From NCBI GenBank assembly GCA_016722945.1, contig JAEQMT010000010.1, positions 241,765-265,764 of the forward strand: DNA of 24,000 nucleotides, written 5' to 3'. The translations under genes and the position numbers were made by a program. This DNA is from Desulfofustis sp. PB-SRB1. Its GTDB lineage: Bacteria; Desulfobacterota; Desulfobulbia; Desulfobulbales; Desulfocapsaceae. Under the pieces are notes generated by a model. That model did no database searches, was not told the origin of the DNA, and worked only from the letters and a program-made list of their open reading frames with translations. Of this stretch, positions 2 to 19,110 are shown piece by piece. Within the stretch, counting starts at the first letter, position 1, and the number at the start of each line of letters is the position of its first letter.

Positions 2-838
2 GTTGCTCTGGGCTTTTACAAGGACATTGCCAATATTGATATCACCTTTTTTGAATACACCTGGTATCTGTTCCCGGTTGGTTGGCTTATGACGCTGCTG
101 CTCTGGGGCTTTTTCATGATCTTCTGCAAGCCGGAAAAAGACCGTATCGACGGGCTGAAGGAGCGGTCCAAGCGCATGTACAAGGAGCTTGGCGGGTGGA
201 GTCGCGATGAGATCCTTGCCGTAACGATTGTGGTGGCCACCATTCTGATCATCGCCCTGAAAAATTTCATTCCCGCCCTGGCAGATTTCCACAAAACAGC
301 AATTATACTCTGTTCAACTATTGCCTTCTTTATCACCAGGCTGTTGACCATTGAAGATCTGGAAGAAATTCCCTGGAACATTATTCTTCTGTTCGCCGGC
401 GCCATGTCCATCGGTTTCTGTCTGTGGGAAACCGGAGCGGCCAAGTGGCTGGCCGTCAACTGGCTGGTGATGTTCCAGAATGCCCCGGCAATCGTGTTTA
501 TCCTCGGCATGGCATTTTTTGTTATGATGATGACAAACTTCATCATGAACGTGGCCGCCATTGCCATCTCTTTACCGGTTGCCCTGGTCATTGCCCCCTA
601 TCTTGGCGTGGCGGGGGAGGTTGTGCTCTTTTCATCCCTGGTGGTTTCCGGCATGCCCTTTCTGTTGCTCGTGGGTGCGGCCCCCAATGCCATTGCCTAT
701 AACTCCAGGCAGTTTACTACCGCCGAGTTTGCCATGTATGGCGTACCGGCGAGCATCCTGCTGATGGTGGTCACCTGGTTCGCGGTCGCCGTCATCTGGC
801 CGCTGATGGGAATGCAGGTCTTTATTCCTGCCTCCTGA
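2..838 (+). CDS. SLC13/DASS-family (anion:cation symporter-like) permease, C-terminal portion; the 5' end lies outside the window
   Basis: The frame of the listed 89..838 ORF stays open back to nt 2 (VALGFYKDIANIDITFFEYTWYLFPVGWL precedes the listed Met). The sequence is hydrophobic and multi-TM. Segments PWNIILLFAGAMSIG and VGAAPNAIAY resemble conserved re-entrant regions of DASS/ArsB-NhaD superfamily permeases. Confidence 0.7.
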   Translation, partial: VALGFYKDIANIDITFFEYTWYLFPVGWLMTLLLWGFFMIFCKPEKDRIDGLKERSKRMYKELGGWSRDEILAVTIVVATILIIALKNFIPALADFHKTAIILCSTIAFFITRLLTIEDLEEIPWNIILLFAGAMSIGFCLWETGAAKWLAVNWLVMFQNAPAIVFILGMAFFVMMMTNFIMNVAAIAISLPVALVIAPYLGVAGEVVLFSSLVVSGMPFLLLVGAAPNAIAYNSRQFTTAEFAMYGVPASILLMVVTWFAVAVIWPLMGMQVFIPAS

Positions 839-844
839 TCGGCA

Positions 845-882
845 GAATCCGGTGCCGCCTGCCGGCAGGCGGCACCGGATTC
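845..882 (+). terminator. GC-rich perfect palindrome/hairpin just downstream of the permease stop
   Basis: GAATCCGGTGCCGCCTGCC / GGCAGGCGGCACCGGATTC is a 38-nt perfect inverted repeat starting 7 nt after the TGA at 836-838. No U-tract follows, so this is terminator-like rather than a canonical intrinsic terminator. Confidence 0.5.
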
Positions 883-923
883 GGGCATAGGATGATCTAC
901 CAGCGCTGTCATTAACTATAAGG

Positions 924-1060
924 GAACCTTGCATAATGGCCTTTTCGCCAAGCTCTTCGTTGCTTGAAACATGTTGTTTTCGAAAAAGTGGGTCGGCCCG
1001 CGGAACTATGTTCCCGGCGCCTCGATCGTGTACGAAAATTCTCATTTTTCAAGTTTCCCA
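924..1060 (+). repeat. Conserved noncoding element, copy A (paralog of 10304..10441)
   Basis: By-eye alignment with 10304..10441 in the same (+) orientation. Shared blocks are CTGCA.AATGGCCTTTTCGCC, CGTTGCT, ATGT, GCGCCTC, ACGAAAAT.CTCA.TTTTCAAG and CCCAT. Both copies keep the small inverted repeat GAAAAT-N4/5-ATTTTC. Substitutions are not third-position biased and an indel breaks the frame, so it looks noncoding. Confidence 0.6.
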
Positions 1061-1081
1061 TGAGAAGAGAACCTGAATCTG

Positions 1082-2476
1082 ATGGCTGCCGATAGTCCTG
1101 ATCTGAGCTCTCTACTGGAGGGTTTTCCCCATCCGGTCATGATTTTGGACGACTCCTGCCGAATTATCACCATGAACCGACTCATGGAGGCAATCACCGG
1201 CTATGCCATTCAGCAGGTGGCGGGACTCCATGGCGAACTCGTGGTCCGCAGCAATACCGGCAACAACCGTGGTCAATTGTTCATGGAGGTACTGAGAAGC
1301 GGTGATCCGTCAACCGCCAGGGGTGATATGCTCACCTGTTATCGCCGCAGGATTCCGATCCAGTACACCATTTCGGCGCTGCTGGGTAAAGGCGGCAGGC
1401 GGGTCGGCCTGATGGTGGTTGTCGAGGATACCTCCGCAACTGAAGCGGCAAGCAGTACTATTGATGATGAGCAGCAGGCAAATGGACTGATTGGCTACAG
1501 TCCCGCAATGCGGAAAGTATTTGATGCCATTCCGGTACTTGCCAAGACCGATGCCTCCGTTCTGGTTACCGGCGAAACCGGCACCGGGAAAGATCGCGTG
1601 GCCGAGGTCTTACACAGAAAATCGGAGCGTGCCAGATTCCCGTTTGTTAAAATAAATTGTGGTGCTCTGCCTTCAGAGCTCCTTGAATCGGAGTTGTTCG
1701 GTCACGTCAAGGGCGCCTTCACCGGGGCTACCCGCAACAAACCCGGAAAGTTCAAACTTGCTGAGAAAGGAACCATATTTCTGACGGAAATCGGCGATAT
1801 GCCGTTGCCGTTGCAGGTTAAGCTACTCACCGTGCTGGATGATAAAACATTTGTTCCGGTTGGTGGTGAGCGAGAGCTCACTATTGATGTGAGAATTGTT
1901 GCGGCCACCCATAGGCCGCTGCGGGAGCAGGTCGCCAAGGGGCTGTTTCGGGAAGACCTTTTCTACCGTCTGAACGTGTTGCATGTTCACCTACCCGCAT
2001 TGCGGGAACGGGAAGGTGACGTTCAGTATCTGCTTGATCATTTTCTGCAGAAATATGCAAAGGCATTGGGCAAGACCGTGGTCGGTTTTTCCTCAGACGC
2101 AGTGATTTGCCTTCTTGGCTATCATTATCCAGGCAATGTCAGAGAGTTGAGCAATATCGTCGAGTATGCCGTCAATATGAGTAAGAAGAAAAAAGTAGGT
2201 AAAGAGGATCTGCCTCCCTATCTTTTCGAAAAGACGCAGGTGCAGGGTGCTGCAAGTACTGAAAACAGACAGATGAGTGTACAAGAGTCCGAGCCGATGA
2301 ATGAACAATCAGGAGCACCGGACTACCGGCGGCAACAGCAGAGTTGGGGAGATATTGAGCGCCAGTTGATTGTCGATACACTCAAAAAAAACAGAGGAAA
2401 CCGAACAAAAACCGCTGAAAGTCTTGAATGGGGACGTATGAAGCTGTGGCGCAAGATGCAGAAATACGGACTCTAA
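1082..2476 (+). CDS. Sigma-54-dependent transcriptional activator (bEBP), PAS - AAA+ - Fis-type HTH, no receiver domain (EBP-1)
   Basis: N-terminal PAS-like region (ILDDSCRIITMNRLMEAITGY). Walker A GETGTGKD, ESELFGH, GAFTGA loop and FREDLFYRLNV arginine-finger region. PGNVRELSNIVEYA (sensor II region). C-terminal HTH (NRTKTAESLEWGRMKLWRKMQKYGL). The Walker B region reads FLTEIGD, with T where D is usual. Confidence 0.9.
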   Translation: MAADSPDLSSLLEGFPHPVMILDDSCRIITMNRLMEAITGYAIQQVAGLHGELVVRSNTGNNRGQLFMEVLRSGDPSTARGDMLTCYRRRIPIQYTISALLGKGGRRVGLMVVVEDTSATEAASSTIDDEQQANGLIGYSPAMRKVFDAIPVLAKTDASVLVTGETGTGKDRVAEVLHRKSERARFPFVKINCGALPSELLESELFGHVKGAFTGATRNKPGKFKLAEKGTIFLTEIGDMPLPLQVKLLTVLDDKTFVPVGGERELTIDVRIVAATHRPLREQVAKGLFREDLFYRLNVLHVHLPALREREGDVQYLLDHFLQKYAKALGKTVVGFSSDAVICLLGYHYPGNVRELSNIVEYAVNMSKKKKVGKEDLPPYLFEKTQVQGAASTENRQMSVQESEPMNEQSGAPDYRRQQQSWGDIERQLIVDTLKKNRGNRTKTAESLEWGRMKLWRKMQKYGL

Positions 2477-2492
2477 CGCCGGAGGCAACTCA

Positions 2493-2843
2493 TTGAGAAA
2501 ACTGCTCATACCAATCCAGGGAGACTATGTTGCACCGCGGTTCGATCTTGCGGTGGAATTGCTCATCGTGCGTTTCAGTGATGATGGGCAGGAAGAGCCG
2601 CGAACCATCATTATGGAGCGTCCTTCCGAGGAAGCACTCTGCCAGATGATCGTTGAGGAGCAGGTAACGGATCTGGTCTGTGGCGGGATTGATGAGGTGC
2701 ACTATAACTTCCTGTTGTGGAAAAAAGTCGATGTTATCGACGGTGTTATCGGCGGCTGGTGCCGGGCGCTGGAAAAGGCGGTATGTGGTGATCTGAAAGC
2801 TGGTGAAATTCTGCTAAACGGGGAGGGCGCGCTCGCTCTATAA
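2493..2843 (+). CDS. NifX/NifB-like (dinitrogenase FeMo-cofactor-biosynthesis-domain family) small protein, paralog 1
   Basis: TTG start 7 nt after GGAGG (2481-2485), 16 nt after the EBP-1 stop. LIPIQGDYVAPRFDLA...LVCGGIDEVHYNFLLWKKVDVIDGVIGGW fits the beta-alpha pattern of small NifX/NifB-type proteins. It is clearly paralogous to 8358..8717. Confidence 0.6.
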   Translation: MRKLLIPIQGDYVAPRFDLAVELLIVRFSDDGQEEPRTIIMERPSEEALCQMIVEEQVTDLVCGGIDEVHYNFLLWKKVDVIDGVIGGWCRALEKAVCGDLKAGEILLNGEGALAL

Positions 2844-2848
2844 TTCTT

Positions 2849-4549
2849 ATGAAGATTGCAGATATCATTCTTCCGAATTCCTTGAAAGGTTCTATTGACC
2901 TGGGTTTGGAGAGAAGAAGCTATGGCCGGTTCAAAGTGATTTTGTTTCTGATCATGATCGCGATCACCGCAATACCGGCAACCACGATTGCCTTTCTGGG
3001 CTATATCAATTACAAAAATCTCCTGCAAAAAGATGAGATCACCCAGCTCAAATGGCAGATGGATGGTTCCATCGGTTCCATCGAGCAGATGGTTGGCAGC
3101 CTCAAATCCGTTGTCCAGTTTATCGCTCGCAAAGATCGCTATACGGAATTGACTACGGGCTCCAGCCTTGAGGATCTGTTTGACCGGTTGCAACGGCAAT
3201 ACCCTTCGTTTGCCGATCTTGGCGTGATCGACGAGCAGGGGGTTCAGCAGGCGTATTATGGGTCATATGATCTTGAGGGGACTGACTATTCCGGTGAGAG
3301 CTGGTTCAGCGAAGTGATGGAAAAAGGTCTTCACATCAGCCCCGTATATCGAGGGTATCGAGATGTGCCTCATTTTGCCATTGCCGTCAGCACCTATGAT
3401 CCTGTAATTCGAAAAACATGGGTGATGCGTGCTACTATCGAGGCGGACACGCTACAGAATTTTGTCGGAACCATAAAAACAGAAGCAACCGATGATCTTT
3501 TTCTTGTTGTTAGTGAAGGAGTTTTGCAGACCTTCTCCAATTATTTCGGGCAACCGCTTACCCAGACCGAACTAGAGATCGAACCTGGCGTGCGTTCATA
3601 CATGTCGATGGCGCAGGAAGAATTTCTGATTGCGATCGGCGACATCGCGGCAACCCCGTGGTATCTGGTCATCATCAAAAATGGCTACACCAGCAATAGT
3701 GAGTGGAGGTCGTTTCGCTCCGAGCTGTTCATTCTCTATGTTGTCTGCATGGTCATTAGTGTGATTGTTATCTTCGCCCTGGTCAACATGCTCACCTCGC
3801 TGATTCGCAAGGCTGATGAAATACAGATCGGCATGATGAAGGAAGCGGAACACAAGGACAAACTGGCTTCCATCGGCCGACTCGCCTCAGGGGTGGCGCA
3901 TGAAATCAACAACCCGCTTGCCATTATCAATCAAAAAACCGGTCTGGTTGAAGACATCCTCAATATCACACCAGATTTTGATCATAAACACACGGTTCTC
4001 GAGAGCCTTAAGTCAATTGATAACAGTGTGGAACGGTGCAAGGCAATCACTCATCGATTGCTTGGGTTCGCCCGTCGCACCGAGGTGTTGTACCAGCACA
4101 TTGATGTGAATGAGACGATCAGAGAGGTGCTGAAATTTCTTGAAAAGGAGATGATGTACAGCAGGATTGAGCTGGATCTCCAACTGCAAGACAATTTGCC
4201 GAACATTTACAGCGATCGTCTTCAGATTCAGCAGGTGCTGCTCAACATCATCAACAATGCCATCGACGCAATTGGCAAGGACGGGACGATTTCGATCATA
4301 TCCAACCTGATAGCCGGGGAGGTCAGAATCGTGATTCAAGATGATGGGTCAGGGATCCCCGAGGATATGCTTTCCCAGATATTTGAACCCTTTTTTACAA
4401 CAAAAGAGACAGGCAAAGGGACCGGGCTTGGCCTTTCAATTACCTATGGCCTGGTTAAAAAGCTGGGCGGTGATATTACCGTGCGATCCAATGTCGGTAA
4501 AGGAACCGCTTTTACGATAACCTTACCCGTTAAGGTGGAAAAACAATGA
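2849..4549 (+). CDS. Sensor histidine kinase: TM - Cache-like extracytoplasmic domain - TM - HisKA - HATPase_c
   Basis: Two hydrophobic segments ([23 protein letters not shown] and [20 protein letters not shown]) flank a ~250-aa region containing DYSGESWF (Cache-like). H-box [11 protein letters not shown]-box [15 protein letters not shown]1 QDDGSGIP, F-box FEPFFTTK, G2 GTGLGLSI. Confidence 0.9.
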
Positions 4550-4929
4550 CGAATAACACCAGCAAAAAGATCAGGGTGCTCATTGCCGACGACGAGTTTG
4601 ATTTTGCTTCAACTCTGCAGACGCGTCTGAATTTGCGGGATTTTGAGGCCACTATGGTAAGCTCCGGGGAAGAGGCGGTGCAAGCCGTCGAGCAACAGAA
4701 GCCTGATGTCCTTCTACTTGATCTGAAGATGCCCGATCTGGACGGGTTGGAGGTGTTGTCCAGATTAAAAGAGATGGGCGCTGAGACCAAGGTGATCATT
4801 CTCACCGGGCATGGTTCATTTGAGGTCGGCCGGGAGGGGATGGAAATGGGCGCATTTGACTACATCATGAAGCCGGTGGATCTAAACGAGTTGATTGTCA
4901 AAATCGAGGATGCGCACGGTTCCCGATAA
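4546..4929 (+). CDS. Single-domain response regulator (CheY-like receiver), RR-1
   Basis: ATGA start/stop overlap with the kinase gene. Canonical receiver residues are present: IADDE, LLLDLKMPDLDG, ILTGHG, IMKPV. There is no output domain. Paralogous to 7911..8300. Confidence 0.9.
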   Translation: MTNNTSKKIRVLIADDEFDFASTLQTRLNLRDFEATMVSSGEEAVQAVEQQKPDVLLLDLKMPDLDGLEVLSRLKEMGAETKVIILTGHGSFEVGREGMEMGAFDYIMKPVDLNELIVKIEDAHGSR

Positions 4930-5008
4930 CTCCGTGGCAGCCTGCCGAAGCGACGGCGCGCCGGTGCCTGGGGATCAGGCGTTTCTTATAACGATTGAGA
5001 GGTAAAAT

Positions 5009-5665
5009 ATGGACATACAAAAGTCTCCCCGCGGTGTCGAGGCAGTCTGCCTGGAAGTATATGGCATGCTGTCCGCCTCTGTTACCCATGAAATCAAGAA
5101 TACCCTTTCCATCATCAACGAGAATGCCGGTCTGATCCAGGATCTCTGCGCTATGGTTGAAGGCGATGATGGTGTTCCAGCCGGAAGGGTTGACGCCTCA
5201 ATGCAGATGATTGCCAATCAAGTTAACAGATCAAATGTGATCATGAAAAATCTTAACCGTTTCTCCCACAGCAATGACAGAATTCCCGATCAGGCCGATC
5301 TGTCGGAAACGGTGACGCTTCTGGTGGCATTGACCAGTCGGTTTGCGGCAATGCGTAAAGTTTCGGTAGCCACAGATTGCGAATCCGGACATGTCATAAC
5401 AACCAATGTGCTGACCCTGTATTGCCTGGTTTTCCTCATTCTCAAAACCCTCTACTCTCTTTGTTTGGAAGACACTACGCTGCTGGTGTCAGGTAAGCAG
5501 GCTGCTGGGCTCCTGGAACTGCGGTTTGTTCCGGAAAAAACAAACAGTCAAACATATCCCCCGGACTTTCCCGGCGAAAAGGAGAAGATGCTCGCTGAGC
5601 ACATCGGAGCAACGTGTTCGTGTGAGGATGGGGAGGTGGTCGTGATTTTGAAAGAAAGGGGTTAG
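5009..5665 (+). CDS. Soluble HisKA-containing kinase-like protein with a degenerate or absent ATP-binding motif set
   Basis: RBS GAGAGG 7 nt upstream. H-box SVTHEIKNTLSIINENAGL. The C-terminal ~110 aa have the length of an HATPase_c domain, but I cannot find an N-box Asn, DxGxG (G1) or GxGxGL (G2). No TM segments. Confidence 0.65.
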   Translation: MDIQKSPRGVEAVCLEVYGMLSASVTHEIKNTLSIINENAGLIQDLCAMVEGDDGVPAGRVDASMQMIANQVNRSNVIMKNLNRFSHSNDRIPDQADLSETVTLLVALTSRFAAMRKVSVATDCESGHVITTNVLTLYCLVFLILKTLYSLCLEDTTLLVSGKQAAGLLELRFVPEKTNSQTYPPDFPGEKEKMLAEHIGATCSCEDGEVVVILKERG

Positions 5666-5718: not shown

Positions 5719-6276
5719 TCATGTGATATCACATTTTTGCATCACTTCCAGTATATAATGGTACACATCTGAAAGCCTGAGTACACCCACCACACGATCG
5801 CCATTTTCAACCAGCAAGGACTGGTGTCTTCCCAATACCAGTTGGTGAATGCCCTCGTTAAGCGTTGCGCCTTGGCCAATGTACTCGCTTTTCGCCGGGA
5901 TATGCATGATTTTTCGGACGGTCAGTTTGCCGGCTTTTTTACAGATGTCGTCCAGCGGCTTCTGGAGAAGATCAAAGTCCCGGGTAATGTTACGCACGAA
6001 ACTTGGCCCAAGGCCATGACGGGTCAACATACTGATATCGCCAATATCCTGAAACTCCGGCTCCAGGGCGTGCAGGACGCTGATATGGTCAAGCTTTCCG
6101 ATAACCCGTCCGGCGCCATCGGTAACCAGCAGGGCCCGGTATTTATAGCTCGGCCCTCTTTCATTGCAATGCGCTTTCTCCAGAGCCATAACCGATTCAA
6201 ACAACAAAGAATCTTCGGAAATGGTTGGGTACTGCTCCAGGGGGATCATCACTTGATCAACCGTAACGGGATCCAT
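5719..6276 (-). CDS. CBS-pair domain protein
   Basis: Two CBS-like units (VDQVMIPLEQYPTISEDSLL...RVIGKLDHISVLHAL and LTVRKIMHIPAKSEYIGQGATL...RVVGVLRLSDVYHYILEV). I place the start at ATG 6276 (MDPVTVDQ...), preceded by GGAAGGAGAAG. The track's longer ORF (to 6438) would overlap the upstream gene by 74 nt and begin with an Arg run. Confidence 0.75.
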   Translation of the reverse strand: MDPVTVDQVMIPLEQYPTISEDSLLFESVMALEKAHCNERGPSYKYRALLVTDGAGRVIGKLDHISVLHALEPEFQDIGDISMLTRHGLGPSFVRNITRDFDLLQKPLDDICKKAGKLTVRKIMHIPAKSEYIGQGATLNEGIHQLVLGRHQSLLVENGDRVVGVLRLSDVYHYILEVMQKCDIT

Positions 6277-6364
6277 CTTCTCCTTCCAGACGATATTTCG
6301 GTCAAATTGTAGTGTATCGTTTTCCCAACTGCTGCTTGCAACCAGAGCTAAATCGGGCTGGCCG

Positions 6365-6844
6365 CTATTTCTTCTTCTTCTTCTTCTCCTCCTGATCCAT
6401 AATCTCCTTGGCGGTATCAAATTCACCGGCTTCGGCAAATACCCCTGCCATCAGAGACGATTCGACAGTGGCGCTGTAAGCGCGACGGATCTTATCGACC
6501 AGGGTGTCAACTTCGATGGGTTTTTCCAGATATTCAAAGGCACCAAGCTTCCTTACCTCTTTTTCATCCTGCTCTGTACCCTTACCGGTTAAAACAATGA
6601 CCTGAACTTTCGGGTAAGTTTTTCTTACCCGCTTTAGAACTTCGATGCCGTCTATGCCCGGCATCCGAAGATCAAGCACCATTACATCGGGCACCTCGTT
6701 GCTGACCAACTCGAGCGCCTCTTCACCATCCAGTGCCACACTGGAAGAGAGTTCACGCATGTTAATCCGTTCGGCGAGCGTATTGGCGAAGTCTTTTTCA
6801 TCGTCGACAAGCAAAATCTTGATTTTCTCTTTACCCTTGCCCAT
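6365..6844 (-). CDS. Response regulator receiver with a C-terminal FAEAGE-module and poly-Lys tail (RR-3)
   Basis: Start chosen at ATG 6844 (MGKGKEKIKILLVDDE), preceded by GAGGAG. Canonical receiver residues: LVDDE, VLDLRMPGIDG, VLTGKG, LEKPI. The C-terminal extension SSLMAGVFAEAGEFDTAKEIMDQEEKKKKKK carries the shared motif (FAEAGE encoded at 6422-6439). Confidence 0.85.
   Translation of the reverse strand: MGKGKEKIKILLVDDEKDFANTLAERINMRELSSSVALDGEEALELVSNEVPDVMVLDLRMPGIDGIEVLKRVRKTYPKVQVIVLTGKGTEQDEKEVRKLGAFEYLEKPIEVDTLVDKIRRAYSATVESSLMAGVFAEAGEFDTAKEIMDQEEKKKKKK
6368..6391 (-). repeat. Trinucleotide tract (AAG)5-AAA preceded by GAGGAG, encoding EEKKKKKK
   Basis: The + strand reads TTT CTT CTT CTT CTT CTT CTC CTC immediately before the stop of RR-3. 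The same tract reads as eight Arg codons in the +1 frame. Confidence 0.9.
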
Positions 6845-7355
6845 CCCTTTTCTCCTCTGGTTTGTGTGAAAACCCTCCGGTTTCAGCAATTATCTGCGCT
6901 GTTGTCAGTTCTCCCACCTCGGCAAAAGCAACAGCCATCATCGCGTCCTGACATTTCCGCAGCAGCGGGCGCCGCTTCTTTTCTAGTTTTATCTTGTGCG
7001 CACCCGCTGCCTGTATGCTTCTTATCAGGGTGTTTATTTCCACGGGGACGAGAAAATCATCAAACACGCCGGCCTTCATCGCTGCAATCGAGTTATTGAA
7101 ATAATCGTAAGTATTGATGGTAATTATTTCAACATGAGGCTTGATCCGTTTTATCTCCTCAACGATGCGCACACCCTCGATCTTGAGACTGGATAGATCA
7201 ACAAGTCCAACATCTATGGGCTTTTGCGAAAGAATTGCCGTCGCAGCGCCAATTTGATTGGCGCCAAAGAAACGGAATTCGTTTCTATTTAATCGACTGC
7301 TGATTGCATCTCGAAAGTATTTATCACTTTCGACAAAAAGAAGACTCAGGCCCAT
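6831..7355 (-). CDS. Atypical (pseudo-)receiver domain protein with a C-terminal FAEVGE-module
   Basis: Receiver-like fold pattern (LLFVESD, GLVDLSSLKIEG, IITINT, GVFDDFLVPVEINTL). The position of the invariant Lys (..KP..) is Val (FLVPV), and the acidic pair reads ESD. The C-terminal extension QDAMMAVAFAEVGELTTAQIIAE carries the motif (6909-6926). The 3' end overlaps RR-3 by 14 nt. Confidence 0.75.
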   Translation of the reverse strand: MGLSLLFVESDKYFRDAISSRLNRNEFRFFGANQIGAATAILSQKPIDVGLVDLSSLKIEGVRIVEEIKRIKPHVEIITINTYDYFNNSIAAMKAGVFDDFLVPVEINTLIRSIQAAGAHKIKLEKKRRPLLRKCQDAMMAVAFAEVGELTTAQIIAETGGFSHKPEEKRDGQG

Positions 7356-7366
7356 ACGTAACTCTA

Positions 7367-7690
7367 TCAGGTGCTGATGGGAACAAAACCGTAAGAGATG
7401 TGCGCACCTTCCAGACCGACTTTTTCCAAAAACCCTGCCAATGTGTTTTCTTTCTGAATGTACCGGGTTTCTTTTTTACCAACCAGTCGACGTGCTTCTT
7501 CGACTTCGCCGCTTTCGGCAAAGGCCACTGCGGTCATATGGTTCTGAAAGCCTTGCAATAGCTTATCCAGCAGCCGCTTTGGCTTGTCGGTTACATCAGC
7601 CATGCGGATTGCCGTGTCATGCTCACCTGCCTCGGCGAATGCAGCTGCCGCAAATGTCTTTTCAAATGTGGATTGTGATTTGTTGCCCAT
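7367..7690 (-). CDS. Small (107 aa) soluble protein with two copies of the FAExGE-module; no recognisable domain
   Basis: Start chosen at ATG 7690 (MGNKSQ...), preceded by AGGAGG at 6-nt spacing. Motif copies are TFAAAAFAEAGEHDTAIRMA (FAEAGE at 7622-7639) and HMTAVAFAESGEVEEARRLV (FAESGE at 7505-7522). A weaker third resemblance is LAGFLEKVGLEGA near the C-terminus. Confidence 0.7.
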   Translation of the reverse strand: MGNKSQSTFEKTFAAAAFAEAGEHDTAIRMADVTDKPKRLLDKLLQGFQNHMTAVAFAESGEVEEARRLVGKKETRYIQKENTLAGFLEKVGLEGAHISYGFVPIST

Positions 7691-7752
7691 GGTTACCCTC
7701 CTGTGAGTAGATTGGTAAACTGTTCCACTCATGTGAAACACAATCTATTACC

Positions 7753-7768
7753 TACAAGGATCGTGCCA
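7753..7768 (-). promoter_or_regulatory. Sigma-54 (-24/-12) type promoter for the 7690->5719 operon
   Basis: The minus strand reads TGGCACGATCCTTGTA. TGGCACG is a perfect -24 element and the GG-N10 spacing is correct, but the -12 element is TTGT instead of TTGC. It lies ~60 nt upstream of the ATG at 7690 in an AT-rich intergenic region. Confidence 0.6.
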
Positions 7769-7842: not shown

Positions 7843-7902
7843 CATAATGAAACATTAAGAGACGTTTTTGTAGACCCATAATGAAACATTTAGAGACGTT
7901 TT
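7843..7902. promoter_or_regulatory. Tandem direct repeats, candidate upstream activator sequences (UAS) for a bEBP
   Basis: CATAATGAAACATTAAGAGACGTTTT(T) at 7843-7869 and CATAATGAAACATTTAGAGACGTTTT at 7877-7902. They differ at 1 position and have a 34-bp period. Each contains the dyad AATG-N3-CATT. They sit ~75-150 bp upstream of the sigma-54-like core, separated from it by an A/T-rich stretch. Confidence 0.55.
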
Positions 7903-7910
7903 GCTCTCGC

Positions 7911-8300
7911 TTACCGATCATCGCCATGTGCTCTGCGGTGGGGGACGGCTTCAGTGATCTTTGTGATGAGTTCATCGAGATCAACCGGCTTCATCAAAAA
8001 ATCAAACGCACCGAAGCGCATACCGGCCAATCCCTCCCTCGTTGATCCCTGTCCGGTCAACATGATAACCGGTAAATCAGGGTACTGTTGCTTGACTTGC
8101 TGAAGTACATCAAGCCCGCTTAGGCCGGGCAACATAAGATCCAGCACCATTACGTCGTAGATGTTGTTGGCAAGCAGGTTCAACGCTTCCTCACCATCAA
8201 CCGCAACTCCGGTTGGGTAGCCCCTGATCTGAAGGCGATGAGCGAGCGTTGAAGCGAACTCCTCTTCATCGTCCACCAGCAACAATCTCAGATTATTCAT
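7911..8300 (-). CDS. Single-domain response regulator (CheY-like receiver), RR-2
   Basis: LLVDDEEE, VLDLMLPGLSG, MLTGQG, LMKPV. There is no output domain. Colinear with RR-1 (4546..4929). Confidence 0.9.
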   Translation of the reverse strand: MNNLRLLLVDDEEEFASTLAHRLQIRGYPTGVAVDGEEALNLLANNIYDVMVLDLMLPGLSGLDVLQQVKQQYPDLPVIMLTGQGSTREGLAGMRFGAFDFLMKPVDLDELITKITEAVPHRRAHGDDR

Positions 8301-8357
8301 TAGGTTCTCCCGGTAGTTCCAATCCCCTTGACCGACATATCAGCATCCATGTTAGAC

Positions 8358-8717
8358 TTACTGATTGCCACCCTGATCTGTAGTGTGGTCGACAATATCA
8401 CCGGGTGAAAGCTTCGCATTGGCGTAGCGTTTCAGAGCCTCCTCCCACATACCGATGATGGAATCGAAAACTTCGATGCGTTTCCAGACAAGGTATTGAT
8501 AATATTCTTCCTCAATGCCACAGCAGATGACTGTTGTCACTCCTTCAGTGAGAATCAGGTGACAGAGCTTTTCGGCTGATACCTGGGGCAGGACAACCAG
8601 TTTTTCCTCAAGCTTTTTCCTCTGTTGGTCAAGGGTTACAATGACTGCTTCGGATGCCAGATCAAAACGTGGTGCCACTTCGGCGTCATAGAGTGGAATG
8701 AGAACCTTGTGGTGCAT
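8358..8717 (-). CDS. NifX/NifB-like small protein, paralog 2
   Basis: VLIPLYDAEVAPRFDLASEAVIV...VICCGIEEEYYQYLVWKRIEVFDSIIGMW is colinear with 2493..2843. The start ATG at 8717 is only 4 nt after the EBP-2 stop, which suggests translational coupling. Confidence 0.6.
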   Translation of the reverse strand: MHHKVLIPLYDAEVAPRFDLASEAVIVTLDQQRKKLEEKLVVLPQVSAEKLCHLILTEGVTTVICCGIEEEYYQYLVWKRIEVFDSIIGMWEEALKRYANAKLSPGDIVDHTTDQGGNQ

Positions 8718-8721
8718 GTCG

Positions 8722-10137
8722 CTAAATCCCGTATTGTTTCATTTTTCGCCACAACGTGCTTCTCCCCCACCCTAATAGGTCTGCTGTTTTTTGTTTTTTA
8801 CCGCCCGTCTTGACGAGGGCATTGATAATCATTTGCTTTTCGGTCTGAGCCCAGGTGGAACCAGTCACCTGTACTGTTGTTGCTTCGCGAGCCGCCAGGG
8901 GGGAGGCACCTTGATCAGATACGCCGGATACCGGTGTCGGCATGGTGGAAAGATGGTCTGGTTCCATCAAATAGGTGGGGAGGCTCTCTATTCCGATACG
9001 CGAATCCTGGCTTACATTGACCGCGTACTCAACGATGTTGCGAAGCTCTCTTACATTGCCGGGAAAATGGTAATTATTGAGAAAATACAAGGTCTGCCGG
9101 TCGAACCCCTCTATTTTCTTACCAAACTTTTCAGCAAAGGTGTTGAGGAAATGATCTATGAGCAAAACGATATCATCTTCCCGCTCACGCAGCGGAGGTA
9201 AGGTAATTCTCACTACATTGAGTCTGAACAGCAGGTCTTTTCTGAAACTGCCGTTTTCCACCATCCGTTCAAGATTCTGGTTTGTTCCCGCAATTATTCT
9301 GACATTGACCTCAAAGCCTTTGGTGCTGCCGAGAGGGAAGACGACACGATCGTCGAGGAAGGTGAGCAGTTTGACCTGCAGTGATAGTGGTAAGTCCCCG
9401 ATCTCAGTCAGGTAGAGCGACCCGTTGTGGGCCAGGCGAAAACGGCCGGGTTTGTTTTCTTTGGCGTCGGTGAAGGCACCTTTCTGGTGTCCAAAGAGTT
9501 CCGATTCCAATAATGTTTCCGGAAGTGCACCGCAGTTGATCTTGATAAATGGGCCCCTGGCTCGATTGGAGGCTTTGTGGATGGCCTCCGCGGTAAGATC
9601 TTTACCGGTACCCGTTTCCCCGGTGATGAGAACCGATGAGTCGTTCTGGGCAAGCAGCGGCAGCATCTGAAAAACCTTTTCCATTTGCGGACCTTTTCCG
9701 ATCATTTCGGAAAAGCGAAACCCATGCATATCCTGACTGGTACGATTCTGCAGTGCGCGGATGTCCTCCAGGGTTTCAAGATATCCGATCAGCTCACCGG
9801 ATCCACTGGTTATCGGGGCAAAGGTGATGCGTACCTGAACCAGTTCGCGACCCCGGTTGATCAGATCGGTATGTTCACAAATCGGTTCGGAATCTTCTTT
9901 CAGTCGCAGAACCGGACATTTTTTCAAGCAGATTCGACTGCGAATGATGTTGTGACACATAACTCCCCGGGCCTCCTGGGGAGAATAACCGGTCAACGCC
10001 GAGACAGCTTTGTTCGTATGGGCTATTCGGCGATCCTTGTCCAGGATGACAACGCCAATGGGTATTTCATCGAGAATGGTATCAAATGGTACTGACTGAT
10101 CGAATAGTGCCGTAATTTTTGGTTTATTTGACTTCAT
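8722..10137 (-). CDS. Sigma-54-dependent transcriptional activator (bEBP), PAS - AAA+ - Fis-type HTH (EBP-2), paralog of 1082..2476
   Basis: PAS-like N-terminus (ILDKDRRIAHTNKAVSALTGY). GETGTGKD, ESELFGH, loop GAFTDA (variant of GAFTGA), YLTEIGD (Walker B with T for D), FRKDLLFRLNV, PGNVRELRNIVEYA. HTH KQKTADLLGWGRSTLWRKMKQYGI. Cys cluster C-X8-C-X3-C-X12-C in the sensory region. Confidence 0.9.
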   Translation of the reverse strand: MKSNKPKITALFDQSVPFDTILDEIPIGVVILDKDRRIAHTNKAVSALTGYSPQEARGVMCHNIIRSRICLKKCPVLRLKEDSEPICEHTDLINRGRELVQVRITFAPITSGSGELIGYLETLEDIRALQNRTSQDMHGFRFSEMIGKGPQMEKVFQMLPLLAQNDSSVLITGETGTGKDLTAEAIHKASNRARGPFIKINCGALPETLLESELFGHQKGAFTDAKENKPGRFRLAHNGSLYLTEIGDLPLSLQVKLLTFLDDRVVFPLGSTKGFEVNVRIIAGTNQNLERMVENGSFRKDLLFRLNVVRITLPPLREREDDIVLLIDHFLNTFAEKFGKKIEGFDRQTLYFLNNYHFPGNVRELRNIVEYAVNVSQDSRIGIESLPTYLMEPDHLSTMPTPVSGVSDQGASPLAAREATTVQVTGSTWAQTEKQMIINALVKTGGKKQKTADLLGWGRSTLWRKMKQYGI

Positions 10138-16652: not shown

Positions 16653-17375
16653 ATGTGTACGCTTACCTGGTATAGTGGCGATCATTCATACGGGGTCCTG
16701 TTTAGTCGGGACGAGTCAAACGCGCGCTCCGAGGCAGAGCCGCCGTCTATCCATGACGACGGGGCGACTTCGTTTGTCTCACCACGCGACCCCGATGGCG
16801 GCGGCACCTGGCTGTGGGGCAATAGCCAGGGAGTTATCGCCTGTGTCCTGAATCATTATCCGGTTGATGGTGAAACACCCCAGAAACCGGAAAGCCGTGG
16901 TCTGCTGCTCCTGGCCCTGACTTCATGTACCCATGTGGAGCAGGTGGCCGCGGCGCTTGTCCGCCATGATCTGTCAAAGTACCGGCCATTTCTGCTGTTT
17001 TGTCGCGATAACAGGTTGTTTCGTCTGTTTTGCTGGAATATGAATCGCCTTGAGATTGTCAGAGAAAGCGAGATCAATCCACCCATCACCACGTCCGGGT
17101 ATCGGACTCAGGAGGTGGCGGCGTATCGAAAAGGACTCTATGATACGCTGATTGGCGCAGCGGTGCCGATAAACGCCGAGCCGCTTATGCGCTATCATTG
17201 TCGGCATGATCCCGCCATGGCCGCTCACTCGGTATTGACCAGCCGGCCCCACACTCGAACGAGAAGCATCAGCATGGTTTCGGTGGATAGCGAGCTGGTC
17301 ACTTTTTCATATACCACAGTCCATGATTCACTCATGCTCGAGCCTCCTGTCACTGTGCAACTGAGCCGTGACTGA
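16653..17375 (+). CDS. NRDE / TANGO2-family protein (Ntn-hydrolase-like, N-terminal Met-Cys)
   Basis: Begins MCTLTW (Cys2, as in the NRDE/DUF833 family) and carries VLFSRDES at the position of the eponymous NRDE motif. The length (~240 aa) fits. Confidence 0.6.
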   Translation: MCTLTWYSGDHSYGVLFSRDESNARSEAEPPSIHDDGATSFVSPRDPDGGGTWLWGNSQGVIACVLNHYPVDGETPQKPESRGLLLLALTSCTHVEQVAAALVRHDLSKYRPFLLFCRDNRLFRLFCWNMNRLEIVRESEINPPITTSGYRTQEVAAYRKGLYDTLIGAAVPINAEPLMRYHCRHDPAMAAHSVLTSRPHTRTRSISMVSVDSELVTFSYTTVHDSLMLEPPVTVQLSRD

Positions 17376-19101
17376 CACATCCCGGCTCATACTCATCTGC
17401 GCCTGTCTGTTGGGGCTGCCCGTTTCGGGATGGGCCGCCGATGAACCGATGGTGCAGTCGCTGATGAGCCAGCTCGAAACCTACGGCGCTAATCATACCA
17501 ATCGCATGGTGCTGCTGGCCGGTATTGCCCTGGTTACCCTGATCAGTGAAGATCTGGCCTGTATCTGGGCCGGTTTTCTGGCCGCTCGGGCAATCATTTC
17601 GCCCATCGAGGCCATTGTTGCCAGCGGGCTTGGTATCTTTGTGGGCGATATGCTGCTCTACACCACCGGTTATTTTATCGGTGCCGCCGCTCTAGAGCAT
17701 CCGCCGCTTAAATGGTTTATCACACCTCATGCCGTATCTCGATTCAATCGGCTCTTCAAACGGCGTGGAATTATTTTCATCATCACCAGCAGATTTATTC
17801 CCGGAACCAGGGCGGCAACATTTTTCGCCGCCGGCGTGATCCGCTATAATGTTGTCAAGATTGTCCTGATTTTTGCGTTCGCGGTGGCCGTCTGGACGCC
17901 GATTCTGGTGCTGGGCGCCATGCTTGCCGGCCATCAGGCTCTTTATTATCTGGAGGTGTACAGCGCCTATGCCCTGCCCATTCTGGCCGGTTTCATGATC
18001 GGCGTCTACCTGCTCACCCGGCTGGTGGCGCCGCTCTTTACCTGGCGCGGCCGCAGGTTGTTGCTGGGACGCTGGCGGCGCCTGAGCCGGTGGGAATTCT
18101 GGCCCTATTACGTGACCAATGTGCCAACCTTTATCTACGTCTTATATCTCGGCTTCATCAGGTATCGCAAGCCGGCCCTGTTCACCGCGGTCAATCCGGC
18201 GATGAAGCCGGACGGCGGCTTTATGTGGGAGAGCAAGGCGGAGGTTCTGCAGGCACTGCCGGCCGGTGCCACCGGCGCCTGGCGATCTATCCCGGTTGGG
18301 TTATCGCTGGAAGATAAAGTGAGGCGGGTCAAAGAGTTGATGGCTGACAATAGGCTGAGCTATCCAATCGTGCTTAAGCCTGATCATGGCCAGCGCGGGT
18401 TTGGCGTTGCCGTCTGTGATGACGAGGAGATGGTGCGAGACTGGCTGGCCACCAGCACTGCCGCTTGTGTCGCCATGCAGTATCTGCCGGGTGAGGAGTT
18501 CGGTGTTTTTTATATGCGTTATCCGGGCAACCAGTCTGGCGAGATTTTCAGCATAAACAGAAAAAAACTGATCGGTGTGGTGGGTGACGGCGTCCATACC
18601 CTGGAAGAGTTGATTCTGCTCGATGACCGGGCCGTGTGTCTGGCGCCGTTATTTCTGAACCGGTTCACCCCTGAGTTGCTCGACATCATCGAGGTCGGTG
18701 AAACCAAGCAGTTGGTGCGGATCGGCACCCATTCAATGGGGGCGGTGTTTCTTGAAGGCATCGATCTGAAAACCGACGAACTGCTTGCCTCGGTGGAAAA
18801 TATCATCTCTCATTACAAGGGATTTTGTTTTGGCCGGCTCGATATCCGAACAACCGACGAGGATAGTCTACGGGCCGGTGAGAACCTGAAAATCATCGAA
18901 ATTAACGGGCTTACCTCGGAAGCGACCAGCATGTACGATCCGCGCTACTCCATTTTTACCGCCTGGCGCATCCTTTTCACCCAGTGGCGAAAAGCCTTTG
19001 AGATCGCCTATCTGAACTGGCGAAACGGTCATCAGCCGATGACCGGCATGGCTTTTATCCGTCACGGTTTCGGCTGGAAGAGCGGTGAGCAAAGTACGTG
19101 A
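17368..19101 (+). CDS. Fusion: DedA/VTT-type membrane domain + ATP-grasp ligase domain
   Basis: GTG start overlapping the NRDE gene stop by 8 nt. The N-terminal ~230 aa have TM helices with SEDLACIWAGFLA and SRFIPGTRAATFFAAGV (DedA signature R-F/L-x-P-x-x-R). The C-terminal part has YPIVLKPDHGQRGFGV, YLPGEEFGVFY, VVGDGVHTLEELI and GRLDIR...LKIIEINGLTSE, which are ATP-grasp phosphate-binding/Mg-site-like segments. The start codon is uncertain. Confidence 0.65.
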   Translation: MTDTSRLILICACLLGLPVSGWAADEPMVQSLMSQLETYGANHTNRMVLLAGIALVTLISEDLACIWAGFLAARAIISPIEAIVASGLGIFVGDMLLYTTGYFIGAAALEHPPLKWFITPHAVSRFNRLFKRRGIIFIITSRFIPGTRAATFFAAGVIRYNVVKIVLIFAFAVAVWTPILVLGAMLAGHQALYYLEVYSAYALPILAGFMIGVYLLTRLVAPLFTWRGRRLLLGRWRRLSRWEFWPYYVTNVPTFIYVLYLGFIRYRKPALFTAVNPAMKPDGGFMWESKAEVLQALPAGATGAWRSIPVGLSLEDKVRRVKELMADNRLSYPIVLKPDHGQRGFGVAVCDDEEMVRDWLATSTAACVAMQYLPGEEFGVFYMRYPGNQSGEIFSINRKKLIGVVGDGVHTLEELILLDDRAVCLAPLFLNRFTPELLDIIEVGETKQLVRIGTHSMGAVFLEGIDLKTDELLASVENIISHYKGFCFGRLDIRTTDEDSLRAGENLKIIEINGLTSEATSMYDPRYSIFTAWRILFTQWRKAFEIAYLNWRNGHQPMTGMAFIRHGFGWKSGEQST

Positions 19102-19110
19102 AGCGGGCAA

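Follow-up and report, generated by a model that had tools for sequence, protein, structure and literature searches.

We tentatively propose that a short helical hairpin built around the residues F-A-E-A-G-E (the FAEAGE hairpin) is a previously undescribed, self-contained module that acts as a protein-protein docking unit of the regulators in sigma-54/transporter operons, a reading that may well be correct but falls a little short of probable. The hairpin was found in a window of 24,000 nucleotides of Desulfofustis sp. PB-SRB1, the whole stretch of DNA that was analysed, and in many related loci. The motif marks regulators in sigma-54-controlled operons that accompany anion transporters of the DASS and TSUP families, whose substrates are likely of the sulfate family.

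Four copies of the pattern h-[EQ]-x-x-[MF]-x-A-x-x-F-A-E-A-G-E-x-x-T-A are spread over three consecutive minus-strand genes of the window. A six-frame regular-expression scan of the window for FAE.[GN][EC] yielded four matches and no others, each on the minus strand (7622-7639, 7505-7522, 6909-6926 and 6422-6439), and these are the coordinates at which the original prediction had placed its four F-A-E-x-G-E cores. An HMM of 21 positions, trained solely on copies from other loci, recovered on the minus strand the first and second copies of the small protein (7595..7657, TFAAAAFAEAGEHDTAIRMAD, 36.3 bits; 7478..7540, HMTAVAFAESGEVEEARRLVG, 32.7 bits), the copy in the tail of the canonical receiver (6395..6457, SLMAGVFAEAGEFDTAKEIMD, 33.3 bits) and that in the tail of the atypical receiver (6882..6944, AMMAVAFAEVGELTTAQIIAE, 15.8 bits, rising to 20.3 when the full HMM was used). 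With the same leave-window-out HMM, the next best of the 204 window ORFs scored 3.6 bits and the top score among 50 x 204 shuffled ORFs was 8.3 bits.

Among 259 distinct copies, the conserved block extends from position -2 to +20, about 23 residues, with the highest information content at F7 (4.35 bits) and 3.2-3.5 bits at each of A4, A8, E9, G11 and A16. A basic amphipathic helix, K/R-rich at positions -9 to -3 and hydrophobic at -6, -5 and -2, ends in ..M-x-A-x-x-F-A-E-A and is followed by a Gly turn and then by E-x-x-T-A-x-x-h-h. Position 12 is E in 177 of these copies, C in 31 and D in 26, while position 13 is His in 74 and Phe equally often. The first copy of the window's small protein has E12 and T15 and so represents the canonical variant. 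The second copy belongs to a class that is divergent throughout the family, in which position 12 is occupied by C, L or E (Cys in 24 and Leu in 16 of 53) and position 15 by E; the two copies are thus not equivalent. No Pfam or NCBIfam family reached its cut-off for the motif and the PDB gave no significant sequence match, in agreement with the earlier failure to assign it to a named family. Orthologous loci conserve it as well: all four copies are kept in loci L004-L006, and L001 keeps the two small-protein copies and one receiver-tail copy.

The first gene of the operon (7367..7690, minus strand) encodes the small protein of 107 amino acids, which we regard as a possible adaptor, and has AGGAGG 6 nt ahead of its ATG. 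Comparison with a 61%-identical orthologue in L004 gave a pN of 0.23 against a pS of 0.90, indicating that the small ORF is a protein-coding gene under purifying selection; a gene of identical length was called in L087. Every motif is conserved among 12 close homologues that were aligned, and a profile of the protein matched 343 cluster representatives at E<=1e-3. The protein also has, at its C terminus, a third conserved element, FLEKVGLxxAxVxYG (7388..7432, minus strand, FLEKVGLEGAHISYG; FLExVGL..V.YG in shorter form), which had not been remarked on before. F87, L88, E89, V91, G92 and L93 of this element are invariant in alignment A1, and it is duplicated both in P0012 and in the HTH fusion proteins.

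The atypical receiver follows (6831..7355, minus strand, 174 amino acids), with a Response_reg match of 6.1e-10 and 39.7 bits in Pfam, against a cut-off of 30.2. The Asp at its phospho-acceptor position is conserved in the alignment, the window protein having VDL, and the protein has VP for KP, with loss of the Lys, Asn for Thr/Ser and an incomplete acidic pair. The replacements of Lys and Thr/Ser, like the hairpin tail, were seen in 27 orthologues, and judged by its residues the protein is likely a pseudo-receiver. In the canonical receiver (6365..6844, minus strand, 159 amino acids, Response_reg 6e-29), DD, VLDL, LTG and KP are all conserved in 51 orthologues, and A133, F136, A137, E138, G140 and A145 of its hairpin tail are invariant in 59. 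The last gene (5719..6276, minus strand) encodes a CBS-pair protein of 185 amino acids, matched by Pfam CBS (3.4e-06) in two stretches. Across the family, a CBS protein comes after the receivers in 23 of 83 loci, mostly as the immediate neighbour, on one side or the other, of a DASS or TSUP gene.

This organization bears out the original prediction of a tightly packed operon that ends in a CBS-pair protein and starts from a sigma-54 promoter preceded by repeats. The gap between the small protein and the atypical receiver is 11 nt, and the two receiver genes overlap by 14 nt. A putative -24/-12 promoter at 7753..7768 on the minus strand (TGGCACGATCCTTGTA) is the sole match to the pattern in the window; it reads TGGCAC-N5-TTGTA, with GT instead of GC at -12. 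The identical 16-mer lies about 111-115 nt ahead of the first motif in L014, L023, L034, L037 and L053, and 33 loci have similar or identical sites. Of the 65 stringent -24/-12 matches in a set of related loci totalling 1.13 Mb, 33 are on the strand of a motif gene and precede its first motif by 83-400 nt. A 26-nt direct repeat is present in two copies, spaced 34 nt apart, at 7843-7868 and 7877-7902 on the minus strand, and its core AATGTTTCAwTATG also occurs upstream of the orthologous gene in L004. These repeats are putative upstream activator sites, to which the adjacent PAS-type enhancer-binding protein would bind. At the sequence level, then, the -24/-12 spacing, its conservation and a PAS-AAA+-HTH_8 activator two genes upstream all point to a sigma-54 operon.

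Upstream of the repeats, Pfam identified on the minus strand a stand-alone receiver (7911-8300), an ORP/NifX-like protein (8358-8717) and this PAS-AAA+-HTH_8 sigma-54 activator (8722-10137), and the order of the block 7911..10137 is the same in L004 and L087. A second string of genes (2..5665, plus strand) is convergent with the motif operon. It begins with the 3' part of a DASS Na:sulfate-symporter gene (2-838; Na_sulph_symp 3.3e-16 at 89-838), the complete form of which, 499 amino acids, is found in the near-identical contig L087; there, a second sigma-54 site stands at the head of the gene string that includes the DASS gene. The string continues, by Pfam and NCBIfam, with a second PAS sigma-54 activator (1082-2476), an ORP/NifX-like protein (2493-2843), a histidine kinase with dCache_1, HisKA and HATPase_c domains (2849-4549), a receiver (4546-4929) and a sensor-less kinase-like protein of 218 amino acids (5009-5665).

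Of the 83 loci, 68 include a gene for a TSUP or DASS anion transporter, and in 47 of those 68 it is co-directional with the motif genes and 1-6 genes downstream of them; kinase and activator genes adjoin the motif genes across loci. The loci were collected using the small protein as bait, so that these neighbourhood statistics are biased towards the operon type of the window. A second operon type was also found, in which a tiny protein, a USP, a two-helix protein, TauE and a tandem USP are encoded. Neither the tight linkage of the motif to TSUP and DASS genes nor the DASS cluster of the window had been noted previously.

The motif also occurs in 80 further genomes of Desulfobacterota and Nitrospirota and is concentrated in lineages that hold classical sulfate reducers. 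A search of 5.8 billion proteins gave about 2,000 matching protein clusters at E<=10 and, among the matches listed, the motif-bearing clusters are all annotated as hypothetical. This wide spread of the family is a further observation not made before. That the motif is a modular unit appended to different domains, as originally suggested from the window, holds for the family as a whole. Receivers with a motif tail account for 88 ORFs; USP domains carry the motif as an insertion or at the N terminus; and it is present in two-copy small adaptor-like proteins, in tiny proteins of 55-65 amino acids that consist of a basic helix, the motif and a basic tail, in 8 of 17 two-helix membrane proteins beside TauE, and as an insert in one PPDK-like enzyme. 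At least two different motif-bearing proteins are encoded in 72 of the 83 loci. Because the motif is found in the cultured strains Halodesulfovibrio aestuarii DSM 17919 and Hydrosulfovibrio ferrireducens CB1MN, the hypothesis is directly testable.

The AF2 model of the canonical receiver (mean pLDDT 82.9) shows alpha-5 running unbroken into the motif: a helix spans 112-138 through F-A-E, a turn falls at A-G-E, and a second helix spans 142-158. The pLDDT, about 90 within the domain, drops to 76-52 along the tail, which fits a protruding element that has no intramolecular partner. In the small protein, AF2 predicted two hairpins and no compact fold (pTM 0.30). All three modelled copies, with moderate confidence in the tail, thus form a helix, a Gly turn and a helix. 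The half-TPR-like unit that had been read from the letters of the window is consistent with these models and also with the database comparisons, in which the motif showed sub-threshold likeness only to TPR/PPR hairpins (TPR_4, TPR_6, TPR_14, the NsdA TPR-like family, and designed TPR and PPR10 chains). On TPR_4, whose cut-off is 27 bits, the small protein of the window scored 16.7, and the best relative also stayed below the cut-offs, with 23.2 bits on TPR_4 (27), 22.8 on TPR_6 (26.3) and 22.6 on TPR_14 (23.5). The window holds no tandem array of 34-residue TPRs, the receiver copies being single and the two copies of the small protein 39 residues apart. Some multi-copy relatives have three or four copies about 32-38 residues apart, and this makes the wider family borderline as a TPR array.

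The best reading of these data, we infer, is a role of the hairpin in docking or hetero-oligomerisation. Its conserved hydrophobic and small surface (h-2, M2, A4, F7, A8 and A16) is larger than one short partner helix would bury, which suggests that hairpins pack together, and those of different proteins might do so in the manner of adjacent TPR repeats or by forming a four-helix bundle. A PAS-type activator at the 26-nt repeats would fire the -24/-12 promoter, and the operon would then supply a two-hairpin adaptor, a one-hairpin pseudo-receiver, a one-hairpin phosphorylatable receiver and the CBS protein. Phosphorylation would remodel the alpha4-beta5-alpha5 face of the receiver and, since the hairpin is continuous with alpha-5, its presentation and choice of partner would be altered. 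Once assembled, the complex might regulate the two-component system by feedback, or it might have a post-translational effect on the neighbouring transporter. A bolder form of this idea, rather unlikely on the present evidence, is a "split TPR" in which hairpins on phospho-receivers, pseudo-receivers, USPs, tiny proteins and a membrane subunit stack in trans at DASS/TSUP transporters, while receiver phosphorylation and the nucleotide-binding CBS and USP domains choose which proteins join. The strict partner-switching circuit that had also been suggested finds no support: Pfam scans of the operon's four proteins and of nine further genes of the window detected neither a STAS nor a PP2C domain nor an anti-sigma kinase, and the sole HATPase_c match in the scanned genes is the dCache/HisKA sensor kinase at 2849-4549, which is not RsbW-type. 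Three findings stand against docking itself. The number of copies per locus, from 1 to 5 with 3 (28 of 83) and then 4 (23 of 83) the commonest, follows no simple pairing rule; the second copies of the small proteins have Cys or Leu in place of E12 and so are not equivalent to the first; and the near-invariant acidic E9 and E12 are odd for a purely hydrophobic packing interface and might rather indicate a ligand or a basic partner.

It is also conceivable, although we consider it unlikely, that the hairpin is a homodimerisation element of its own protein and takes part in no mixed assembly. The alpha-5 extension of NtrC1 and DctD is a dimerising, phosphorylation-sensitive coiled coil, and the hairpin would in the same way prolong alpha-5 into a four-helix bundle formed with another copy of its own receiver or USP. 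The continuity of alpha-5 with the first helix of the motif in the AF2 model agrees with this, as do the longest structural alignments of the receiver model, which were to NtrC1 receivers (1zy2, 1ny5 and 4l4u) whose alpha-5 extends past the receiver fold; receivers and USPs are, moreover, often dimers. However, homodimerisation leaves unexplained why a near-invariant sequence is placed on unrelated scaffolds, why some stand-alone proteins consist of one to three hairpins only, and why 72 of the 83 loci have several different motif proteins, the more so as the homodimer interfaces of paralogues usually diverge and thereby avoid cross-talk.

An equally unlikely alternative is that the hairpin serves as an address tag for one common motif-free partner, such as the TSUP or DASS transporter on its cytoplasmic side, or else the sensor-less kinase-like protein or the sigma-54 activator, for which the tagged proteins would compete or to which they would be recruited. 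The invariant and exposed acidic E9 and E12 would suit recognition of a basic surface, the motif genes are accompanied by kinase and activator genes and usually by a transporter gene, and the membrane protein beside TauE has the motif in just 8 of its 17 cases. However, no single motif-free family is present in all loci, the transporters fall into four different clusters of two families, and the activators differ between loci in their N-terminal domains.

Sensing of a cation, a metal or a redox/sulfide signal through E9, E12 (or Cys12) and His13 seems very improbable to us. The alternation of E, C and D at position 12, the frequent His at position 13, the predominance of Cys in the second copies of the small proteins and the sulfidic, metal-rich settings of the host organisms would fit such a site, but Leu also occurs at position 12 in the second copies, Phe is as frequent as His at position 13, one hairpin offers too few ligands, and Pfam, NCBIfam and the PDB gave no likeness to known metal-binding motifs. 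There is little to recommend the view that the basic amphipathic helix ahead of the motif binds the membrane and brings the regulators to the transporter, with the FAEAGE turn merely capping the helix: its K/R-rich and hydrophobic positions, the basic helix and tail of the tiny proteins and the precedent of small transporter-regulating proteins such as MgtS and SgrT speak for it, but conservation peaks in the Ala/Phe/Glu/Gly core and not in the amphipathic segment, and in the receivers this helix is alpha-5 of a soluble domain. That the four copies are ordinary degenerate TPR repeats of no special role, sharing a common TPR-like composition, is scarcely credible, because, for all the sub-threshold matches, even the best TPR score stays below its cut-off, the conserved block has about 23 and not 34 residues, F-A-E-x-G-E is near-invariant in a way that the consensus positions of TPR are not, single copies are attached to globular domains, and the motif is sharply restricted both in its genomic context and in its taxonomy.

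Dissimilatory sulfate reduction begins with the uptake of sulfate, a step that influences its rate (PMC5840216), and the substrates of TSUP transporters are unknown (PMC5840216, PMC4641369). The uptake transporters of sulfate reducers and their regulation are still largely unassigned, and the motif bears on this open question of physiology. As a candidate new domain family for annotation, the FAEAGE hairpin joins receivers, USPs, tiny proteins and a membrane subunit over about 2,000 clusters of hypothetical regulators under one tag, and it offers a concrete handle on these uncharacterised proteins through an HMM and point mutants. An alpha-5-borne docking hairpin may also be a new output mode for single-domain response regulators. 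If hairpins do stack in trans at the transporters, sulfate reducers would possess a dedicated post-translational gate on the uptake of sulfate-family anions.

By gene content, the window resembles the DASS clusters of Desulfobacteraceae described in a 2025 paper, having a DASS gene, a dCache kinase, several receivers and a CBS pair; the paper proposes that such clusters, with their Cache kinases and CBS proteins, regulate sulfate uptake, and its section 14 says nothing of the shared motif or of the small protein (PMC11887813). In D. vulgaris, nine sigma-54 operons encode TSUP or PSE transporters, and in the TSUP/USP operons of strain Hildenborough, as in our window, a sigma-54 promoter and a neighbouring enhancer-binding protein drive transporter operons (PMC4641369); these operons match the second operon type found here. 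The window receiver and NtrC1/DctD both prolong alpha-5 of a phosphorylatable receiver as a long helix, but theirs joins covalently to an AAA+ domain whereas ours terminates in a short hairpin, and in the window locus it is PAS domains, not receiver domains, that the sigma-54 activators have. With the alpha-hairpin repeats of TPR, PPR and SEL1, the motif shares the order of helix, Gly turn and helix, an aromatic knob, and packing positions that are occupied by small residues (Ala), and it aligns with the central 20 or so positions of TPR_4, TPR_6, TPR_14 and the designed TPR and PPR10 hairpins; it differs in its shorter conserved block, its near-invariant F-A-E-A-G-E and its restricted taxonomy and operon context. 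In its mode of action, the FAEAGE hairpin may be compared with the D/D domain of PKA RII bound to AKAP and with the docking domains of polyketide synthases; these have no relationship to it in sequence or in demonstrated structure, but in them, too, short helical hairpins on globular domains serve solely to assemble defined partners.

The F-A-E-x-[GN]-[EC] core was found at four sites only in a six-frame scan of the window (minus strand; 7622-7639, 7505-7522, 6909-6926 and 6422-6439), and all four lay within three consecutive ORFs. We scored them with a 21-position HMM that had been trained on copies from other loci, with the window excluded. The copies obtained 36.3 bits (small protein, copy 1), 33.3 bits (canonical receiver), 32.7 bits (small protein, copy 2) and 15.8 bits (atypical receiver), against 3.6 bits for the best non-motif score among the 204 ORFs of the window and a maximum of 8.3 bits among 10,200 shuffled ORFs. 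The four copies of the original prediction were thus borne out at the codons assigned to them, and the gene models that we obtained were also the same. The small protein of 107 aa (7367-7690, minus strand; AGGAGG 6 nt ahead of the ATG) is followed after an 11-nt gap by the atypical receiver (6831-7355, minus strand), which overlaps by 14 nt with the canonical receiver (6365-6844, minus strand), and the next gene encodes the CBS-pair protein (5719-6276, minus strand; ORF and Pfam). The -24/-12 promoter with repeats noted ahead of the operon was located as TGGCACGATCCTTGTA at 7753-7768 on the minus strand, the sole match to the pattern within the window, and as two 26-nt direct repeats, 34 nt apart, at 7843-7902.

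All four genes differed from their orthologues in L004, a related locus, with pN of 0.10-0.23 and a saturated pS of 0.73-0.90; pN/pS was used instead of dN/dS because synonymous sites were saturated in three of the four genes. The small ORF had values of 0.23 and 0.90, respectively, and is therefore a genuine coding gene. The atypical receiver keeps the phospho-acceptor Asp, and the conserved Lys and Thr are absent. All four receivers in the window are stand-alone proteins, and both activators (8722-10137, minus strand; 1082-2476, plus strand) are of the PAS-AAA+-HTH_8 type without a receiver domain. Behind each activator comes the gene of a small Nitro_FeMo-Co (ORP/NifX-like) protein (8358-8717, minus strand; 2493-2843, plus strand). 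The PAS region of the 471-aa activator is rich in Cys (..MCHNIIRSRICLKKCPVLR..PICEH).

Orthologous loci, which had been suggested as a check, kept the motif: the four copies and the entire gene order were retained in L004-L006, and in the more distant L001-L003 both small-protein copies and a single receiver tail. Twelve close homologues of the small protein kept both copies, together with a third conserved element, FLEKVGLxxAxVxYG, at the C-terminal end. A scan that used the small protein as bait and one genome per species collected 80 further loci, whose taxon labels derive from metagenome bins. Eighteen were titled Nitrospirota/Thermodesulfovibrionia, most others Desulfobacterota or 'delta proteobacterium' (Desulfobacterales, Desulfobulbales, Desulfovibrionales, Desulfomonilales and Syntrophales), and a few merely Proteobacteria, Pseudomonadota or 'uncultured bacterium'; two came from strains in culture, Halodesulfovibrio aestuarii DSM 17919 and Hydrosulfovibrio ferrireducens CB1MN. 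Across every ORF of the collected loci, iterated HMM searches identified 230-259 distinct copies, with a conserved block at positions -2 to +20 of h-[EQD]-x-x-[MF]-x-A-[AV]-[AT]-F-A-E-A-G-E-[FH]-[ED]-T-A-[RK]-x-[IML]-[LM]. F7 carries 4.35 bits of information, and A4, A8, E9, G11 and A16 carry 3.2-3.5 bits each.

At E<=10, a motif profile built from an alignment of concatenated copy pairs matched 1,993 clusters in a set of 5.8 billion proteins. The best 120 of these contained no Pfam domain and were mostly 34-70 aa in size; nearly all were unnamed or 'hypothetical', and one had an unrelated source name (tRNA(Ile2) C34 agmatinyltransferase TiaS). Where an organism was named among the 120, it was mostly from Nitrospirota and Thermodesulfovibrionia; the labels Thermodesulfobacterium and Acidobacteriota each occurred once. 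The small-protein profile matched 343 representatives at E<=1e-3 among 1.84 billion proteins. Three motif-bearing proteins (P0361, P0370 and P0062) came from bins labelled Ignavibacteria or Acidobacteriota, which may reflect mis-binning or a true spread beyond Desulfobacterota and Nitrospirota.

The motif genes lie directly 3' of histidine-kinase and sigma-54-activator genes, and 33 of the 65 stringent -24/-12 matches in the 1.13 Mb of loci were located 83-400 nt upstream of the first motif on the same strand. The 16-mer TGGCACGATCCTTGTA recurs identically in five distant loci (L014, L023, L034, L037 and L053), each time about 111-115 nt before the first motif; these loci are from different families (Desulfobulbaceae, Hydrosulfovibrio, Desulfurivibrionaceae). 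The commonest neighbours were TauE/TSUP permeases (54/83 loci) and the DASS Na:sulfate-symporter family (19/83), one or the other being present in 68 of the 83 loci, and in 47 loci the transporter was co-directional and 1-6 genes downstream. Two types of operon could be recognized. Type A, to which the window belongs, was seen where the label was Desulfobacterota or delta proteobacteria. It has an activator, an ORP/NifX-like protein, a dCache kinase, a receiver and a kinase-like protein, and then sigma-54-driven genes that encode the small protein, the atypical receiver, the receiver, CBS, and either DASS or TauE. Type B, found mostly under a Nitrospirota label, has a kinase and an activator, and its regulated genes encode a tiny protein, a USP with the motif, a two-helix membrane protein, TauE and a tandem USP. 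The kinase-like protein of the window (218 aa, 5009-5665, plus strand; H-box SVTHEIKN) lacks a sensor and had no Pfam match, its AtoS/ZraS-type similarity being limited to the DHp and the start of the ATPase region; in most type-A loci, a homologue directly precedes the gene for the small protein. The DASS gene of the window lies at 2-838. The near-identical contig L087 has this gene in full (499 aa, 16850-18349, minus strand), and a second sigma-54-type site, TGGCATTTAAATTGCT (20289-20304, minus strand), is followed downstream by a 410-aa Cytidylate_kin2-plus-receiver protein (18990-20222, minus strand) and, before the DASS gene, by a 146-aa receiver (18502-18942, minus strand). The hairpin is absent from all three of these L087 proteins.

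The motif was found behind receiver domains in 88 ORFs, and A133, F136, A137, E138, G140 and A145 were invariant across 59 orthologues of the canonical receiver of the window. It was also found in small proteins with two, sometimes three, copies, within USP domains or ahead of them, and once as an insert in a PPDK-like enzyme (L039, 12649-14964, plus strand; residues 196-214). A PPDK_N/PEP-utilizers protein of about 700-850 aa closes many type-A operons, behind TauE_b and a 232-aa membrane protein (L039, L014, L016, L023, L034, L037, L043, L053 and L082). By clustering, 8 of the 17 members of a two-helix membrane protein of about 84 aa, adjoining TauE genes, bear the motif at the N terminus. 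This protein belongs to no Pfam family, is encoded directly upstream of TauE_b genes and may serve the TSUP permease as an accessory subunit. A fuller form of about 117-120 aa with the N-terminal hairpin is present in L048 (6469-6831) and L080 (7986-8339), and motif-less forms occur in L061, L062, L065, L069, L073, L076, L079, L081 and L086.

Tiny proteins carry a single motif and a basic tail ending in ..LRA. They form a large family of roughly 55-65 aa, each with a basic helix at the N terminus, a single FAEAGE hairpin and a tail with a conserved R-x-x-[LM]-R-A end (P0021, P0022, P0026, P0044, P0047, P0048, P0056, P0062, P0083, P0094 and P0096; in loci L051, L056, L065, L069, L074, L076, L081 and L083); the organism-named members are mostly Nitrospirota/Thermodesulfovibrionia, and the usual place is the first gene of a TauE operon. 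In fusions of about 350-505 aa (P0179, P0184, P0202, P0211 and P0228), the entire small-protein module stands behind an IS630-transposase-type HTH domain. Their layout comprises this HTH, about 250 residues of unknown fold, two hairpins and two FLExVGL motifs, and they may join the hairpin module to a domesticated DNA-binding domain from a transposase. P0281-P0296 are tandem receiver-receiver proteins of about 271-279 aa, annotated solely as NtrC/OmpR-family response regulators; among the three inspected, P0282 and P0292 have a single terminal FAEAGE-like hairpin (..MLMAAAFAQVGETDMA..), and P0285 has the start of the hairpin alone, then divergent sequence.

The tag is a conserved, mobile, hairpin-shaped element on several co-expressed regulators of sigma-54-controlled transporter operons. 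The AF2 model of the canonical receiver (59 sequences; mean pLDDT 82.9) has a confident receiver fold, in which alpha-5 (112-138) runs unbroken through ..F-A-E, followed by a turn at A-G-E and a helix at 142-158, with the pLDDT of the tail falling to 76-52. The small protein was modelled as two hairpins and a short C-terminal helix without a compact fold (pLDDT 64.5, pTM 0.30). We infer that the hairpin is a docking unit, because the same sequence is retained on unrelated scaffolds, because some proteins are hairpins alone, because several tagged proteins are almost always encoded together (at least two different ones in 72 of the 83 non-redundant loci), because the conserved hydrophobic and small residues of the first helix exceed what the short second helix can bury, and because the predicted hairpins protrude without an intramolecular partner. 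In the window, the small protein with its two hairpins would link the pseudo-receiver to the phosphorylatable receiver. The way in which the hairpin borne by alpha-5 is presented would change on phosphorylation at the alpha4-beta5-alpha5 face, and candidates for the output are the CBS protein and the DASS transporter nearby. We regard this docking scheme as tentative, with a chance a little short of even.

Each hairpin protein might instead simply form homodimers. Foldseek with the receiver model returned ordinary receivers only, none with a comparable terminal hairpin; the longest alignments were to NtrC1 receivers, whose alpha-5 extends past the receiver fold. In NtrC1 this extension is a dimerising coiled coil. 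Covariation among the copies of one locus, assessed by eye, tracks lineage, so that interaction and shared ancestry are inseparable in it. We consider pure homodimerisation unlikely, and equally so the binding of the hairpin to a common partner that lacks the motif. It is improbable that E9, E/C12 and H13 make up a cation, metal or redox site. Position 12 is acidic in the canonical class, to which copy 1 of the small protein and the tails of the canonical receivers belong (E, with D in 20 of the 50 receiver tails; mostly T15); it is Cys or Leu in copy 2, with Glu at position 15, and Q9 is frequent in the atypical-receiver tails. Even less probable is membrane binding by a basic amphipathic helix. 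A K/R-rich amphipathic stretch precedes the motif, and a charged linker follows it.

That the motif is a meaningless degenerate TPR is scarcely credible. Pfam gave nothing above cut-off (TPR_4, TPR_6 and TPR_14 aligned sub-threshold at model positions ~6-26), NCBIfam gave nothing beyond one sub-threshold TPR-like family, and against PDB sequences the motif profile had weak designed-TPR and PPR10 matches alone (E>=0.017) and the small-protein profile had zero matches at E<=10. By these tests, the motif is not a member of any TPR family. Literature searches on the core string 'FAEAGE' retrieved nothing relevant, and on 'DVU2957' the regulome paper alone; the motif is unmentioned in the accessible portions of PMC11887813, PMC4641369 and PMC5840216. 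The earlier claim that it belongs to no named family therefore holds for Pfam, NCBIfam, PDB sequences and the literature on the core string. Two further candidates were set aside. A compartment-targeting peptide (microcompartment or encapsulin) was weighed against the recurrent neighbour families that had been annotated, which were transporters, USP, CBS, kinases, the PPDK-like enzyme and membrane proteins. Hpt-like phosphotransfer by the small protein was dismissed because, in the alignment of the family, histidine occupies no invariant or near-invariant column.

That DASS and TSUP operons are under two-component and sigma-54 control is already known; the hairpin family that their regulators share, and the pattern of its fusions, are undescribed in the literature searched. 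By analogy, the FAEAGE hairpin may work like the packing of TPR-type hairpins or like docking or dimerisation helices, and it resembles the alpha-5 extension of NtrC1/DctD receivers. PMC11887813 describes a DASS-type cluster for sulfate transport that is conserved across 26 sulfate reducers, contains Cache kinases, CBS proteins and numerous two-component systems, and is proposed to tune sulfate uptake. Two other papers describe nine sigma-54 operons of D. vulgaris for transporters (TSUP or PSE) whose substrate is unknown (PMC4641369), and abundant, unassigned TSUP proteins in sulfate reducers (PMC5840216). The setting of the motif loci agrees with all three. Together, the Cys-rich PAS of the 471-aa activator and the pairs of activator and ORP/NifX-like protein in the window bring to mind OrpR, a PAS activator that carries an Fe-S cluster, as well as the orange-protein operons of D. 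vulgaris (PMC8359166).
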